This document shows positions 18,045 through 22,700 of a stretch of DNA of 64,000 bases, piece after piece; position 1 is the stretch's first letter; every line of letters starts with the position of its first letter. Both the position numbers and the translations under genes were made by a program. This DNA comes from Microgenomates group bacterium (lineage in GTDB: Bacteria; Patescibacteriota; Microgenomatia; PFEM01; JBNASD01). Below the pieces are notes generated by a model that made no database searches, was not told the DNA's origin, and worked only from the letters and a program-made list of their open reading frames with translations. Location: contig JBNASD010000004.1 of the NCBI GenBank assembly GCA_049720225.1, forward strand, positions 1,117 through 65,116, read 5' to 3'.

Positions 18045-18117
18045 GGGCGTGTAGCTCAGCGGTTAGAGCACCACTCTTATAAAGTGGGAGTCGGTGGTTC
18101 GAATCCACCCACGCCCA
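18045..18117 (+). tRNA. tRNA-Ile, anticodon UAU (AUA-decoding)
   Basis: Manual cloverleaf: acceptor gggcgtg/cacgccc, D-stem gctc/gagc, anticodon stem ccact/agtgg with loop cuUAUaa, T-arm ggtgg-ttcgaat-ccacc, 73 nt, no encoded CCA. The body resembles tRNA-Ile(GAU) apart from position 34. Confidence 0.75.
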
Positions 18118-18119
18118 CT

Positions 18120-19385: not shown

Positions 19386-19410
19386 GCTGGAAAATAAGTT
19401 TAGTTTTTAT

Positions 19411-19416
19411 TATAAT
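19411..19416 (+). promoter_or_regulatory. Candidate -10 element (TATAAT) for the tRNA-fMet/tRNA-Met transcript
   Basis: Perfect TATAAT 10 nt upstream of the tRNA-fMet 5' end. No convincing -35 element. Confidence 0.35.
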
Positions 19417-19426
19417 TTATTTATTA

Positions 19427-19499
19427 CGCGGGGTAGTGTACGGTCGCACGCGAGGCTCATAACCTCGCAGGCTAGGTTCAACTCCTAGCCCCGCAACCA
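19427..19499 (+). tRNA. Initiator tRNA-fMet (CAU)
   Basis: Starts CGCGGGG and ends CCCCGCAACCA, giving a C1xA72 mismatch. Three G-C pairs in the anticodon stem (cgagg-cuCAUaa-cctcg). CCA is encoded. Confidence 0.8.
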
Positions 19500-19573
19500 G
19501 GCAGGGTAGCTCAGCTGGTTAGAGCGGGTGATTCATAACCACCAGGCCGGCGGTTCGAATCCGCCCCCTGCCA
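19500..19573 (+). tRNA. Elongator tRNA-Met (CAU); tRNA-Ile2(k2CAU) not excluded
   Basis: Acceptor ggcaggg/ccctgcc, D-arm gctc-agctggtta-gagc, anticodon loop uuCAUaa, T-arm ggcgg-ttcgaat-ccgcc, no encoded CCA. Immediately abuts the tRNA-fMet. Confidence 0.65.
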
Positions 19574-19600
19574 CTTTTAAAAGAAAGGAGGTTTTTATAA

Positions 19601-19657
19601 ATGAAAAAAATTTTGGAAATTTTGAAATCTTGGTGGCACAAACTAACCGGTAAATAA
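19601..19657 (+). CDS. Candidate 18-aa leader peptide MKKILEILKSWWHKLTGK with tandem Trp codons
   Basis: Strong SD (AGGAGG) 9 nt upstream of the ATG. The ORF contains TGG-TGG and is followed within 30 nt by an intrinsic terminator, with tRNA-Trp and trpS immediately downstream. Confidence 0.4.
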   Translation: MKKILEILKSWWHKLTGK

Positions 19658-19684
19658 CCGCCGGTGGGTTTGTAAAAAATTTTT

Positions 19685-19711
19685 AAAACTCGCCGTGCGG
19701 GCGAGTTTTTT
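19685..19711 (+). terminator. Rho-independent terminator (stem actcgcc/ggcgagt, loop gtgcg, T6 tail)
   Basis: GC-rich 7-bp hairpin followed by TTTTTT. Possible alternative pairing between ccgccggtgggttt (19659-19672) and upstream caaactaaccgg. Confidence 0.55.
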
Positions 19712-19717
19712 AATAAT

Positions 19718-19791
19718 AGGGCCGTCGGTTAATGGTAAACCACGGGTCTCCAAAACCCGGACTCCCCGTTCGAGTCGGGGCGGCCCTGCCA
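19718..19791 (+). tRNA. tRNA-Trp (CCA)
   Basis: Acceptor agggccg/cggccct, D-stem ggtt/aacc, anticodon stem cgggt/acccg with loop cuCCAaa, T-arm ccccg-ttcgagt-cgggg, discriminator G, encoded CCA. Confidence 0.75.
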
Positions 19792-20810
19792 TGAGGAAAG
19801 AAAATTGTAAATTGCAAATTACAAATAAAAAAAAGCGAGTTTTTTCGGGGACCAGACCAACAGGAAGGCTTCATTTAGGAAATTATCTAGGAGCAGTTAA
19901 AGGATATTTAGAGTTACAAAACCGGCCTGAGTTTGATTGTATTTATTCGGTGGTCGATTTACATGGAATTACTACCCCCTATAATCCCAAAACTTATCAA
20001 CAGCAAATTTATGATGTCGTTTTGGATTATTTAGCCTGTGGTTTAGATCCCCAAAAATGCCATTTAATGATTCAATCTCAAGTTTCCGAGCATTTGGAAT
20101 TAGCTTATTTATTAGGAACAATTTATCCGGTCTCCCGAGTAGAACAACTACCTACCTATAAAGAGAAAAAGAGGGAAAATCCTCATTATATAAATGTTGG
20201 TCTTTTTTACTATCCAATTTTAATGGCAGCTGATATTTTAATTTATAAAGCAGAATTAGTGCCTGTAGGGATAGATCAGGAACCTCATTTAGAGTTAACG
20301 CGGGAGGTAGCCAGAAAATTTAATTCAATGTTTGCACCAATCTTTCCCGAACCCCAACGATTTGCTACTTATGGAGAATATGTTCCCAGTTTATTGGGAG
20401 AAGGAAAAATGAGTAAATCAAAGAAAGGAAGTTATATTTTACTTACCGATGACTTAATAACTATTAGAAAAAAATTAGCTGCCGCCCCGACTGATATGGG
20501 TAAAGGAGAAAAGGTTCCCCAAGTCGGTGGAGTGGCAAATTTATTAAAATTAGTAGAGCTTTTTGAGGGAAAAGAAAAAAGAAAAAAATACGAACAGCAA
20601 TATCTAAATGAGGGAATAAAATATCAGCAATTAAAAGAAGAGCTAGCAGAGGCAATTTTTCAAGAAATTAAGCCAATCCAACAACGAAGGAAAGAATTTG
20701 AAGGCAAACCAAAACTAGTGGCGAAAATTTTAGAAGAAGGACGTAAATATTGCTCCAAAATTGCCCGCCAAACTCTTCAGGAAGTGAAAAAAGCAATGGG
20801 GTTAGTTTAG
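19791..20810 (+). CDS. trpS: Tryptophanyl-tRNA synthetase
   Basis: VFSGTRPTGRLHLGNYLGA (HIGH-type motif) and KMSKSK. The ORF-track start at 19695 would read through tRNA-Trp, so the start is placed at ATG 19791 (or TTG 19812). Confidence 0.8.
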   Translation: MRKENCKLQITNKKKRVFSGTRPTGRLHLGNYLGAVKGYLELQNRPEFDCIYSVVDLHGITTPYNPKTYQQQIYDVVLDYLACGLDPQKCHLMIQSQVSEHLELAYLLGTIYPVSRVEQLPTYKEKKRENPHYINVGLFYYPILMAADILIYKAELVPVGIDQEPHLELTREVARKFNSMFAPIFPEPQRFATYGEYVPSLLGEGKMSKSKKGSYILLTDDLITIRKKLAAAPTDMGKGEKVPQVGGVANLLKLVELFEGKEKRKKYEQQYLNEGIKYQQLKEELAEAIFQEIKPIQQRRKEFEGKPKLVAKILEEGRKYCSKIARQTLQEVKKAMGLV

Positions 20811-20831
20811 CTTTTATGATAAAATAAACTA

Positions 20832-22700
20832 ATGGCGAATTTTTCTAAAATTTCTAAAAAAAATAATAAAATTAAAAAAATTGAATTGAAATTTAAATTT
20901 AATTTAAAAAATGTTTTGATTTGGCTTTTTTTTCTTTGGTTGGGATTGTCATTTTTAATTTCTTTAAGAATCCAGGAGCCAGGAAAAGAAAAAATTCCTC
21001 TTTCTCAAGCTCTTCAGGATATTAAAGAAGGAAGAATAGAAAAAGTAGAAGTAGAAGATAGTCGTCTTTATTTAACTTATAAAGATGGTCGGGTAGTTCT
21101 TTCTCAAAAAGAATCGGGGGTCAGTTTTGCCGAGATTCTTAAATCAGCAGAAATTCCCCCTCAATCAGTAAATTTTATAGTTAAAGAATTGCCAATTTCT
21201 ACCTCTTTATTAGATTTATTGGCCACCTTACTACCGGCGGTTTTAATGATTTTTTTCTTTATTTATCTTTTTCGTCAGGCAAAAGGTGCTCAGGAATCAA
21301 TTTTTTCTTTTGGTAAATCAACGGCCAAAATTTTTGCCAAAGGAAAACAATCGGTTACCTTTGCTGATGTTGCCGGTGTTGACGAAGCAAAAAAAGAATT
21401 GGAAGAAGTGGTTGATTTTTTAAAACATCCAGAAAAATATCGTCGATTAGGAGCAAGAACCCCTAAGGGAGTTTTATTAGTTGGTCCCTCCGGCTGTGGA
21501 AAAACTCTTTTAGCAAAAGCGGTCGCTGGTGAAGCAGGAGTACCGTTTTTTTCTGCCGCCGGTTCAGAATTTATGGAGATGTTGGTAGGGGTTGGGCCCG
21601 CCAGAATTCGCGATTTGTTTGCTCAGGCAAAAAAAGCTGCTCCTTCAATTATTTTTATCGATGAAATAGACGCTATTGGTCGCCAACGAGGTTTAGGGTT
21701 TACTTCTGGACATGATGAAAGAGAGCAAACTTTAAACCAAATTTTGGTGGAAATGGATGGATTTACACCGGCAGATAATGTGGTGGTGATTGCCGCTACT
21801 AATCGTCCCGACATTTTAGATCCTGCCTTAGTTAGGCCAGGACGATTTGATCGTCGGGTAGTAGTCGATTTGCCAGATTTAGAAGATCGAAAGGCGATTT
21901 TACAAATTCACGCTCGGGGAAAAATTTTTGAGAAAGATGTTGATTGGGATCAAATCGCGCGCGCTACTGTTGGTTTTTCCGGCGCAGATTTAGAAAATAT
22001 GCTTAACGAGGCAGCAATTTTAGCGGCTCGAAATAATCGGAAAGCAATTACCAAAGAAGATATTAACGAGGCAGCGTTAAAAGTAAAATTAGGACCGGAG
22101 AAAAAAAGACTTCAGTCAGAAGAGGAAAAAAGAATGACTGCTTACCACGAAGCCGGACACGCAGTAGTTTCTTACTATCTTCCTCATATGGATCCGGTAG
22201 CCCGCGTTTCGATTGTTTCTCGGGGTTTAGCACTAGGATTTACCTTAATTCCTCCCCAAAAAGATCGTTATCATGAGACAAAGACTCATTTGGAAGAAAC
22301 AATTGTTTCTTTATTAGGAGGAAGGGCGGCAGAAGAAATTGTTTTTAAGGAATTAACTGCCGGTGCCGCCTCGGACATTGATAAGGCAACGAAAATTGCT
22401 CGTCAAATGGTAGTTGATTTGGGAATGAGCCGTTTAGGACCAATCTATTTAGGACCACAAATTGAAGAAGGTGAATGGGGAAAAAGCTGGTGGCAACCCG
22501 CGGAAATTTCTCCTCAAATGGCGGCAAAAGTAGATGAAGAAATTAAAAGAATTGTTGATGAAGCTTATCAGAAAGCACTTTCAATTTTGAAAAAATCAAG
22601 GAAAAAACTTGATTTAGTGGCCAAAACTTTATTAGAGAAAGAAACAATTGAACAGGAAGAATTTATGGAATTAATGAAGAAAAACGAAAATTCTTCTTAA
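20832..22700 (+). CDS. ftsH: ATP-dependent zinc metalloprotease FtsH
   Basis: TM segments, AAA Walker A (GPSGCGKT), second region of homology, and the HEAGHAVV zinc-binding motif. Confidence 0.9.

Follow-up and report, generated by a model that had tools for sequence, protein, structure and literature searches.

In a genome of the Microgenomates group (contig JBNASD010000004.1 of assembly GCA_049720225.1), the tRNA-Trp gene and the adjacent trpS gene are most probably governed by a ribosome-mediated, tryptophan-specific transcription attenuator that combines an 18-codon leader ORF carrying two adjacent Trp codons with a switchable terminator. All of the evidence is computational; the anatomy of the locus, its conservation, the alternative RNA structures and the placement of promoters and terminators were computed directly in the window (the whole stretch of 64,000 nt analyzed here) and in related genomes. 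An attenuator resembling pheM or trpL had been proposed in an initial annotation made from the sequence alone, and this idea is supported by the presence of an antiterminator, by a conserved Trp-codon ORF and by the lack of a recognizable separate promoter for tRNA-Trp.

All features of the locus lie on the forward (+) strand. The unit appears to start at a promoter-like site (TGGAAA-17-TATAAT, 19388–19416) with 10 of 12 matches to the sigma-70 consensus, from which promoters of CPR bacteria may differ. It continues with tRNA-fMet (CAU; 19427–19499; Rfam tRNA 49.2 bits) and the elongator tRNA-Met (CAU; 19500–19574; 67.5 bits), both called by ARAGORN. A Shine-Dalgarno (SD) sequence (AGGAGG, 19586–19591) is located 9 nt 5' of the leader ATG, and the leader ORF (MKKILEILKSWWHKLTGK) of 18 codons plus stop (19601–19657; ATG at 19601, TAA at 19655–19657), recognized from the ORF list and the alignment, holds the putative sensing codons UGG UGG at 19631–19636. 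The intrinsic terminator (19685–19711; -15.2 kcal/mol by ViennaRNA) consists of AAAACUCGCC GUGCG GGCGAGUUUU and a U6 tract; its core stem joins CTCGCC (19689–19694) to GGCGAG (19700–19705), A/U pairs extend it to 19685–19709, and the T6 run occupies 19706–19711. The proposed first regulated gene, tRNA-Trp (CCA) with an encoded CCA end (19718–19791; ARAGORN; Rfam tRNA 56.2 bits), is followed by the proposed second one, trpS (19791–20810; tryptophan--tRNA ligase, PF00579), whose product is 100% identical to P0001. The A of an in-frame trpS ATG at 19791 is also the final A of the tRNA-Trp CCA, as had been suggested, although the public annotation of P0001 (332 aa) starts at a TTG at 19812. The elements listed in the initial annotation were all found at the locus with small corrections of coordinates only, the gap between the T run and tRNA-Trp measuring 6 nt instead of 7 nt. 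In the relatives described below, the trpS ATG lies 0–4 nt past the tRNA-Trp called by ARAGORN and 2–4 nt past the discriminator base, with no SD.

Three mutually exclusive states are predicted for the leader RNA, in the pattern of classical attenuators. The unconstrained RNA folds into hairpin 1:2 and the terminator 3:4 (-34 kcal/mol, ViennaRNA). Hairpin 1:2 (19638–19673), a protector and probable pause hairpin recovered in MFE folds and in the RNAalifold consensus, pairs ACAAACU.ACCGGU with GCCGGU.GGUUUGU, overlaps the final five sense codons of the leader ORF together with its stop codon, and has 95% of its cells paired across the relatives. It corresponds to the pairing (ccgccggtgggtttg with caaac...ccgg) that had initially been taken for the antiterminator, and it forms without a ribosome stall. 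The mutually exclusive terminator and antiterminator folds envisaged at that time were found by constrained folding: the antiterminator 2:3 (19658–19700) pairs CCGCCGGUGGGUUU (19658–19671) with AAACUCGCCG/GCGG (19686–19700) over 14 bp. With a ribosome footprint on the second UGG (W2), the antiterminator reaches -23.2 kcal/mol compared to -15.2 kcal/mol for the terminator, and it uses up the 5' arm of the latter; with the footprint at the stop codon, the terminator alone folds (constrained ViennaRNA folds). In transcripts ending before the 3' arm of the terminator, a W2 footprint places 7–10 nt of the 5' arm in the antiterminator in 8/8 leaders. In full-length L118 with the ribosome at W2, the thermodynamic optimum is still the terminator, and only the truncated, co-transcriptional fold favors the antiterminator; additionally, constrained folds indicate that segment 2 is not released in every case when the ribosome stalls only at the first UGG. 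The terminator stem is kept in the seven homologous leaders, with one-sided changes in L118 only. Because the relatives are too similar, support for the structures comes from conserved pairing potential and from compatible changes on one side: in the comparison of these very similar homologous leaders no base pair has a compensatory change on both sides, and the seven-sequence consensus (RNAalifold) contains six pairs with a compatible change on one side, four of them also in the six-sequence count.

From these structures we infer translation of the leader, stalling, antitermination in vivo and processing in the following way. Transcription would enter from the tRNA-fMet/tRNA-Met promoter or, in most relatives, from a dedicated promoter that would put the transcript 5' end no more than about 2 nt from the leader AUG, and a ribosome would translate the 18 codons. 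When charged tRNA-Trp is plentiful, the ribosome would reach the UAA and cover segment 2 (CCGCCGGUG...), so that segments 3 and 4 would form the terminator and RNA polymerase would halt at the U6 tract and not reach tRNA-Trp, which begins 6 nt farther on. When charged tRNA-Trp is scarce, the ribosome would stall with UGG in the A site and cover segment 1, irrespective of which component is limiting (Trp, tRNA-Trp or TrpRS). Segment 2 would then become available for pairing with segment 3 and the loop of the terminator, and the resulting 14-bp antiterminator would block the terminator, allowing polymerase to continue into tRNA-Trp and trpS. Processing would release the tRNA and leave the trpS AUG 2–4 nt from the cut, which would make the mRNA effectively leaderless. 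Such a loop would be closed and homeostatic, since the sensed Trp-tRNA-Trp is made from the products of both regulated genes. To our knowledge, there are no studies of transcription–translation coupling in CPR bacteria.

The leader ORF does not resemble a chance ORF. Since Trp accounts for 1.5% of the residues in the long ORFs of the window, adjacent Trp codons (WW) would be expected in about 0.4% of random 18-mers, and no other small WW ORF of the window combines a ribosome-binding site with a terminator. The window contains few strong intrinsic terminators, and the one with an SD-led short ORF before it is that of the leader itself; a search for short ORFs upstream of every strong terminator yielded no other leader-type attenuator in the window. 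The fold of the 143-nt spacer has a z-score of -4.0 with respect to shuffled sequences.

At least six further distinct metagenomic relatives (L105, L106, L108 (= L109), L110, L114 and L118), whose TrpRS proteins are 79–86% identical, harbor a homologous leader directly upstream of tRNA-Trp–trpS, and the covariance model scores these six loci at 114–143 bits. The Trp-codon ORF whose conservation the initial annotation had left to comparative analysis is thus present in six other genomes with an invariant WW. Identity between the leader of the window and that of each relative is 83–85% compared to 36–46% at four-fold degenerate sites of the adjacent trpS, and leader conservation exceeds the neutral expectation. 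The start codon, stop codon and WW positions of the ORF are fixed across the relatives; a codon indel keeps the frame, and synonymous changes are found at Leu, Lys, Ile and Gly codons. On the other hand, the N-terminal residues are variable (MLDKIKKILLD in L118 vs MLKRILETIKG), and UGG UGG is invariant in 8/8 leaders, including the diverged L118 and the remote L004. The ORF behaves as coding sequence, and from this pattern we infer that it is translated. Several equally close relatives (L107, L112, L116 and L117) do not show a recognizable regulator upstream of trpS, which indicates that the device is dispensable.

The arrangement of promoters bears on the explanation that survives best among the alternatives, namely that the hairpins end the tRNA-Met transcript as a constitutive terminator or processing signal, the ORF is not translated, and tRNA-Trp and trpS are expressed by unregulated leak-through or from an unrecognized promoter. 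The element does adjoin tRNA-Met in the window and in L105, the alternative structures come without covariation proof, and promoters of CPR bacteria may partly deviate from the sigma-70 consensus. By that consensus, the site at 19388–19416 is the sole plausible promoter of the unit, no other + strand promoter-like site appears before 19958, inside trpS, and a separate promoter for tRNA-Trp or trpS was sought between the terminator and these genes and not found, either in the window or in the relatives. The gap between the terminator and tRNA-Trp is only 6–11 nt, which leaves no room for a promoter. Additionally, the element of L108 has its own promoter and no tRNA-Met upstream at all, and a near-consensus promoter separates tRNA-Met from the leader in L106, L110, L114 and L118, both of which argue against a role restricted to tRNA-Met. 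The scan identified TTGACA-17-TAAAAT (11/12 matches), ending 8–9 nt 5' of the leader ATG, in L108, L110 and L118; a similar placement was read from the sequence in L106, where the -35 element is TCGACA, and in L114. Where the window has an SD, most relatives instead have a leader AUG close to the promoter (leaderless); the SD of the window is explained by the location of its leader within a tRNA transcript. L105, whose leader ATG is located 4 nt past tRNA-Met, lacks both an SD and a usable promoter. A signal that only terminates the tRNA-Met transcript would leave the invariant WW, the fixed frame with its in-frame indel, the SD exactly where the promoter is missing and the conserved 14-bp antiterminator unexplained. 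The leader is linked to tRNA-Trp–trpS and not to tRNA-Met, and the possibility raised at the outset that the terminator merely ends the tRNA-Met transcript is contradicted by L108 and by the lack of a consensus promoter between the terminator and tRNA-Trp or trpS; this explanation is regarded as very unlikely.

It is slightly less probable still that the product itself is functional, as a cationic amphipathic peptide of 18–19 residues with its own terminator, either placed incidentally at this locus or causing the stall as a nascent peptide. The peptide is indeed lysine-rich and amphipathic, and seven leaders share the C-terminal KLTGK although four of its five codons show synonymous changes. 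However, the conserved C-terminal codons are exactly RNA segment 1, where each change is pairing-neutral, and the N-terminal half is variable, as in L118. The element is also always associated with tRNA-Trp–trpS or with a trpS operon and alternates with a Trp T-box.

This alternation was observed among close relatives. The TrpRS of L111 is 93.5% identical to that of the leader-bearing L108, yet its gene is preceded by a T-box with a UGG specifier in place of the leader; L115, L082 and L005 also possess a UGG-specifier Trp T-box and no WW leader. Scores with the Rfam T-box model (RF00230) were 67.7 bits for L111 (E 1e-14), 45.9 for L082 and 35.2 for L005, all below the gathering threshold of 93, and the L115 T-box was identified by its conserved AAGGTGGCACCGC motif and by alignment. 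Leader and Trp T-box are mutually exclusive among close relatives. Both have a common aim, an increase in TrpRS when charged tRNA-Trp is low, and the L111 and L115 T-boxes have the locus and the terminator stem (CUCGCC/GGCGAG-U run) in common with the leader; unlike the leader, which relies on a translated ORF, a T-box binds uncharged tRNA through its specifier and UGGN bulge. Membership of the window element in RF00230 was rejected, since it has no Stem I and no match at E ≤ 10.

The least probable explanation is a miniature or remnant T-box in which UGGC of UGGUGGC pairs with the tRNA-Trp 3' end GCCA without translation: the leader does have GGUGGCAC in common with the T-box sequence AAAGGUGGCACCGCGAG of sister genomes and an identical terminator stem (AAACUCGCC...GGCGAGUUUUU), and trpS of close relatives is under T-boxes, but 19575–19720 gives no Rfam T-box match even at E ≤ 10, Stem I with its specifier domain is absent, the UGGC lies outside any bulge flanked by helices of the terminator 5' arm, the conservation of start codon, stop codon and frame is left unexplained, and L110, L118 and L004 have UGGA, with the tRNA-Trp discriminator base still G in L110 and L118, so direct tRNA sensing through UGGC is rejected for lack of conservation of the C. 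Local alignments of leader and T-box reach z = 4–7 relative to mononucleotide shuffles for L111 and L115 and are weaker for L082; common descent stays a suggestion because terminators share generic features. It is conceivable, albeit rather unlikely, that the discriminator half of a Trp T-box was converted in situ into the WW attenuator. On this path, the GGUGGC core would have become UGG UGG, ACCGC...GAG would have become segment 2, and the terminator AAACUCGCC...GGCGAGUUUUU would have been kept. If true, a tRNA-sensing riboswitch would have been converted to a ribosome-sensing attenuator and the tRNA-Trp gene captured in the regulated unit.

One of the closest likenesses in design is the trpL leader of Escherichia coli (RF00513), whose short ORF likewise carries a tandem UGG pair close to the 3' end and whose RNA also has a stop codon between segments 1 and 2 and the same order of a 1:2 pause or protector hairpin, a 2:3 antiterminator and a 3:4 terminator with a U-tract. 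The Rfam Trp_leader model aligns over its full length with the window at 30.4 bits, under the gathering threshold of 41, and with four relatives at 25.6–27.1 bits, likewise sub-threshold; membership was rejected, and homology is unsupported because the score is under the family threshold. Furthermore, trpL governs biosynthetic genes whereas the window element is predicted to govern a tRNA gene and a synthetase in a CPR bacterium, and most of the related leaders, unlike trpL, are leaderless. The pheM-pheST system of E. coli is similarly a cognate-codon leader-peptide attenuator before an aminoacyl-tRNA synthetase operon, but it uses Phe codons and has no tRNA gene in the attenuated unit, where the window has Trp codons and tRNA-Trp; membership in Phe_leader (RF01859) was also rejected (30.5 bits vs a threshold of 55).

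Leader-peptide control was predicted for Streptomyces trpS (PMC1262725) and demonstrated for trpRS1 (Vecchione & Sello, 2010, J Bacteriol 192:3565, as cited in PMC4787780). As described there, these genes resemble the window in Trp-codon, ribosome-mediated attenuation of TrpRS and differ in that trpRS1 encodes a second, auxiliary TrpRS that is resistant to antibiotics, in an actinomycete of high GC content, with no tRNA gene in that description. In Deinococcus deserti, leaderless leader peptides precede aminoacyl-tRNA synthetase genes such as cysS (PMC4007540); the leader AUG at the transcript 5' end and the attenuator before the synthetase gene are comparable, and the promoter placement is alike in five of the relatives, whereas the phylum and amino acids are different, no tRNA gene belongs to the regulated unit, and the window uses an SD. 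The initial annotation had considered leader-peptide control of a tRNA gene plus its synthetase as new; judging by the Streptomyces descriptions, this does not hold for TrpRS, while the CPR setting and the presence of a tRNA gene within the attenuated unit, together with the exchange between T-box and leader, appear new.

We know of no earlier case of a leader-peptide attenuator placed before a tRNA gene. Regulatory RNA in CPR/Patescibacteria is nearly unexplored, and full-text literature searches found no papers on T-boxes or attenuators in these bacteria. As far as we know, CPR bacteria usually lack Trp biosynthesis. If the model is correct, organisms with reduced genomes monitor tRNA charging, and low charging would raise tRNA and synthetase by one switch. 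Two mechanistically unrelated sensors of one signal would occupy one locus in genomes whose TrpRS are up to 93.5% identical, making the T-box/leader alternation an unusually clean natural experiment on the replacement of regulatory RNA. The system is about 110 nt long and amenable to heterologous coupled transcription–translation, which makes gene regulation in uncultured bacteria accessible to experiments.

A profile search of genome contigs with the TrpRS alignment gave, among the matches listed, mostly distant phyla, with L001–L005 being useful. Over 49 sources, covariance model R1 recovered only the seven known loci and a weak match in L004, a remote member of the Levyibacteriota. This match is a second WW leader with the same three-segment logic, located upstream of an operon ending in trpS at a locus without tRNA-Trp, and it is independent of the leader type found in the window.

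On the forward strand of a low-GC contig (~33%) from a Microgenomates-group (CPR) bacterium, whose TrpRS matches an NCBI 'Microgenomates group bacterium' protein at 100% identity, tRNA-fMet (19427–19499) and tRNA-Met (19500–19574), both supported by sequence and tools, are followed by a Shine-Dalgarno AGGAGG (19586–19591) with 9-nt spacing to the ATG of an 18-codon leader ORF (MKKILEILKSWWHKLTGK and a stop codon, 19601–19657) harboring tandem UGG codons (WW, 19631–19636). Next come a hairpin (1:2, 19638–19673), an intrinsic terminator (19685–19709, U6 tract to 19711; -15.2 kcal/mol), tRNA-Trp (19718–19791) and trpS, whose ATG at 19791 overlaps the final A of tRNA-Trp (database start TTG 19812). 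Sequence and tools thus bear out the order described in the initial annotation. The only promoter-like site upstream of the leader unit is located 5' of tRNA-fMet (19388–19416), and the promoter scan of the window detected none between terminator and trpS, which leaves the idea of a separate promoter for tRNA-Trp/trpS without a candidate there. Chance is an unlikely source of the arrangement because Trp makes up 1.5% of residues in the window ORFs (probability of WW in a random 18-mer ~0.4%) and because, among the scarce strong terminators of the window, only this one is preceded by a Shine-Dalgarno-led short ORF. The window also carries a tRNA-Ile with anticodon TAT (UAU) at 18045–18118; in bacteria AUA is usually decoded by a lysidine-modified CAU tRNA, and a UAU tRNA-Ile is uncommon.

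The free 143-nt spacer is predicted to adopt the 1:2 hairpin together with the terminator (z = -4.0 relative to shuffles), which is also the RNAalifold consensus across leaders. To model ribosome footprints, nucleotides up to position +12 or +15 relative to the A-site codon were kept unpaired. A footprint on the second UGG (W2) yields in the constrained fold a 14-bp antiterminator (-23.2 kcal/mol) that pairs CCGCCGGUGGGUUU (19658–19671) with AAACUCGCCG and GCGG (19686–19700) and consumes the whole terminator 5' arm and loop; a footprint at the UAA masks segment 2, leaving the terminator as the sole structure formed. Transcripts ended before the terminator 3' arm, mimicking co-transcriptional folding, gave antiterminator pairing of 7–10 nt of the terminator 5' arm in 8 of 8 leaders under the W2 footprint, and an essentially free 5' arm under the stop-codon footprint. 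The modeled folding states are those of the classical trpL logic. A mutually exclusive antiterminator had been anticipated and was found by the constrained folds; the pairing originally suggested for it corresponds instead to the 1:2 protector hairpin. No compensatory double changes were observed among the aligned leaders (0 pairs), only one-sided compatible ones, and covariation is therefore uninformative at the present depth. A constitutive terminator is considered very improbable. That the element functions as a Trp-sensing attenuator of tRNA-Trp and trpS is judged quite probable; its anatomy, constrained folds and conservation support the original interpretation in essentials, and we infer every mechanistic step that goes further than the sequence and its predicted structures.

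Loci gathered through TrpRS homologues, from genomes and metagenomes, revealed the leader directly before terminator, tRNA-Trp and trpS in six further distinct assemblies (TrpRS 79–86% identical to that of the window), so that the Trp-containing uORF is kept in relatives as predicted. The peptides are MKKILEKIKNWWHKLTGK in L105, MLKRILETIKGWWRKLTGK in L106 and L114, MLKRILETIKGWWSKLTGK in L110, MLKRILEAIKNWWRKLTGK in L108 (= L109) and MLDKIKKILLDWWNKLTGK in L118. WW, start codon, stop codon and frame are fixed; the alignment contains one in-frame codon indel and synonymous changes at Leu (CTA/TTA/CTG), Lys, Ile and Gly codons, and N-terminal residues vary freely. The ORF behaves as coding, with a variation pattern typical of leader peptides; that it encodes a functional small peptide, which would fit the coding behavior but less readily the free N-terminal variation, is very doubtful. 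From WW to the U-tract the window is 83–85% identical to each relative, compared with only 36–46% at four-fold degenerate sites in the neighboring trpS, and the leader element is therefore under strong purifying selection.

Upstream of the leader, L108 harbors a divergent M23-peptidase gene instead of tRNA-Met, which counters the suggestion that the terminator merely ends the tRNA-Met transcript; the leader thus travels with tRNA-Trp-trpS. In L106, L110, L114, L108 and L118 a near-consensus promoter (TTGACA-17-TAAAAT; 11/12 matches in the three loci scanned, -35 element TCGACA in L106, spacer sequences variable) ends 8–9 nt 5' of the leader AUG, so that the leader ORF would have little or no 5' untranslated sequence. 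This promoter has been lost in the window, where the strong Shine-Dalgarno fits an ORF now internal to the tRNA-fMet/tRNA-Met transcript; the L105 leader shows neither signal. In 7/7 loci the trpS ATG lies 2–4 nt past the tRNA-Trp discriminator base and lacks a Shine-Dalgarno, a placement that suggests a leaderless trpS mRNA arising through 3' processing of the tRNA. Many relatives likewise start trpS, without Shine-Dalgarno, 1–13 nt (up to 32 for tRNA-Gly) past a tRNA-Trp, -Met or -Gly gene (window 19788–19815, L105, L106, L108, L110, L114, L118; further L088, L084, L094, L101, L112, L087), suggesting tRNA punctuation there too. In the window, ftsH follows trpS by 21 nt with no terminator between (20811–20834); an extended -10-like motif (TGATAAAAT) ends 6 nt 5' of its ATG, so that ftsH may be transcribed from a separate, leaderless-type promoter and not depend on attenuator read-through. 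The window FtsH (622 residues, 20832–22700) lacks the intein (Intein_splicing, LAGLIDADG) found in the FtsH gene that lies downstream of trpS in L108 (2512-), L110 (2512-), L113 (2685-) and L116 (2525-).

In full-length alignments the window element scored below the Rfam thresholds of Trp_leader (30.4 versus 41 bits) and Phe_leader (30.5 versus 55 bits); it is a trpL/pheM-type attenuator in design, which would work alike but outside those families. Leader-peptide control of TrpRS has precedents: in Streptomyces, trpS was predicted to be attenuated in this way (PMC1262725) and trpRS1 was shown to be (Vecchione and Sello, 2010, as cited in PMC4787780), and leaderless leader peptides precede aaRS genes in Deinococcus (PMC4007540). 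Literature searches turned up no published attenuator or T-box from CPR bacteria, and a search on tRNA genes behind leader-peptide attenuators gave no clear example. To our knowledge, the latter arrangement has no precedent. The interest of the window attenuator resides in its CPR setting, the inclusion of a tRNA gene in the attenuated unit, which would close a homeostatic loop, and the recent T-box exchange.

Some close relatives harbor a Trp T-box before trpS in place of the leader. In L111, whose TrpRS shares 93.5% identity with that of leader-bearing L108, the T-box (Rfam 67.7 bits, E 1e-14) has an ultrashort Stem I that presents UGG in its loop, plus AAAGGUGGCACCGCGAG. Rfam scores were 45.9 bits in L082 and 35.2 bits in L005, and the L115 T-box was called through the conserved AAGGTGGCACCGC motif and alignment. 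L108 and L111 both have an M23 gene upstream (65% identity between the two) and retain the same remnant of a promoter region; each has one Trp sensor, which lies on opposite sides of tRNA-Trp in the two loci. In L111 (region 610–1090), the stretch from the M23-peptidase promoter region to tRNA-Trp contains an additional insert of ~330 nt, absent from L108. The T-box terminator (AAACUCGCC...GGCGAGUUUUU) is identical to that of the leader and GGUGGCAC is present in both, which permits, without proving it, derivation of one from the other. Direct T-box-like tRNA sensing by the leader is highly improbable, since the UGGC after WW, which such acceptor-end sensing would use, is not kept in L110, L118 and L004. 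No regulator was detectable before trpS in the equally close L107, L112, L116 and L117.

The covariance model built from the leader element gave a weak match (29.6 bits) in L004, a Levyibacteriota locus without tRNA-Trp (TrpRS 53% identical). The match is a Shine-Dalgarno-led ORF (MYKNKNIKNWWNSLTLLGG and a stop codon) that has 1:2, 2:3 and 3:4 segments and a terminator of its own. The end of a Trp_repressor-family gene (Pfam E 5e-19) overlaps this WW leader (1230–1289), which precedes an operon of a 374-residue protein without Pfam match, a SET-domain protein and trpS; the arrangement as a whole occupies 980–2990.

The 5' half of a Trp T-box, homologous to those of L111 and L082, follows a promoter in L086 (2218–2428), L091 (2202–2378; = L092, L093) and L099 (2237–2417), with an ultrashort Stem I (GGUUGGRA loop) and Stem II CCGCAGGAAAUGGCGG. 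Only a hairpin and U-run follow, then tRNA-Trp and trpS; the canonical T-box antiterminator is absent, and in L086 and L099 the terminator 5' arm shows complementarity to the 3' strand of Stem II. The element may be a T-box-derived sensor autoregulating the tRNA-Trp gene. Additionally, a group I intron (Rfam Intron_gpI 72–80 bits, over threshold) splits the tRNA-fMet gene in L084 (1063–1258), L085 (same sequence) and L086 (1916–2111, minus strand), and the close TrpRS homologues P0014, P0015, P0022, P0050 and P0097 (475–497 residues) carry an N-terminal fusion to PF04073, a YbaK/aminoacyl-tRNA editing-like domain.
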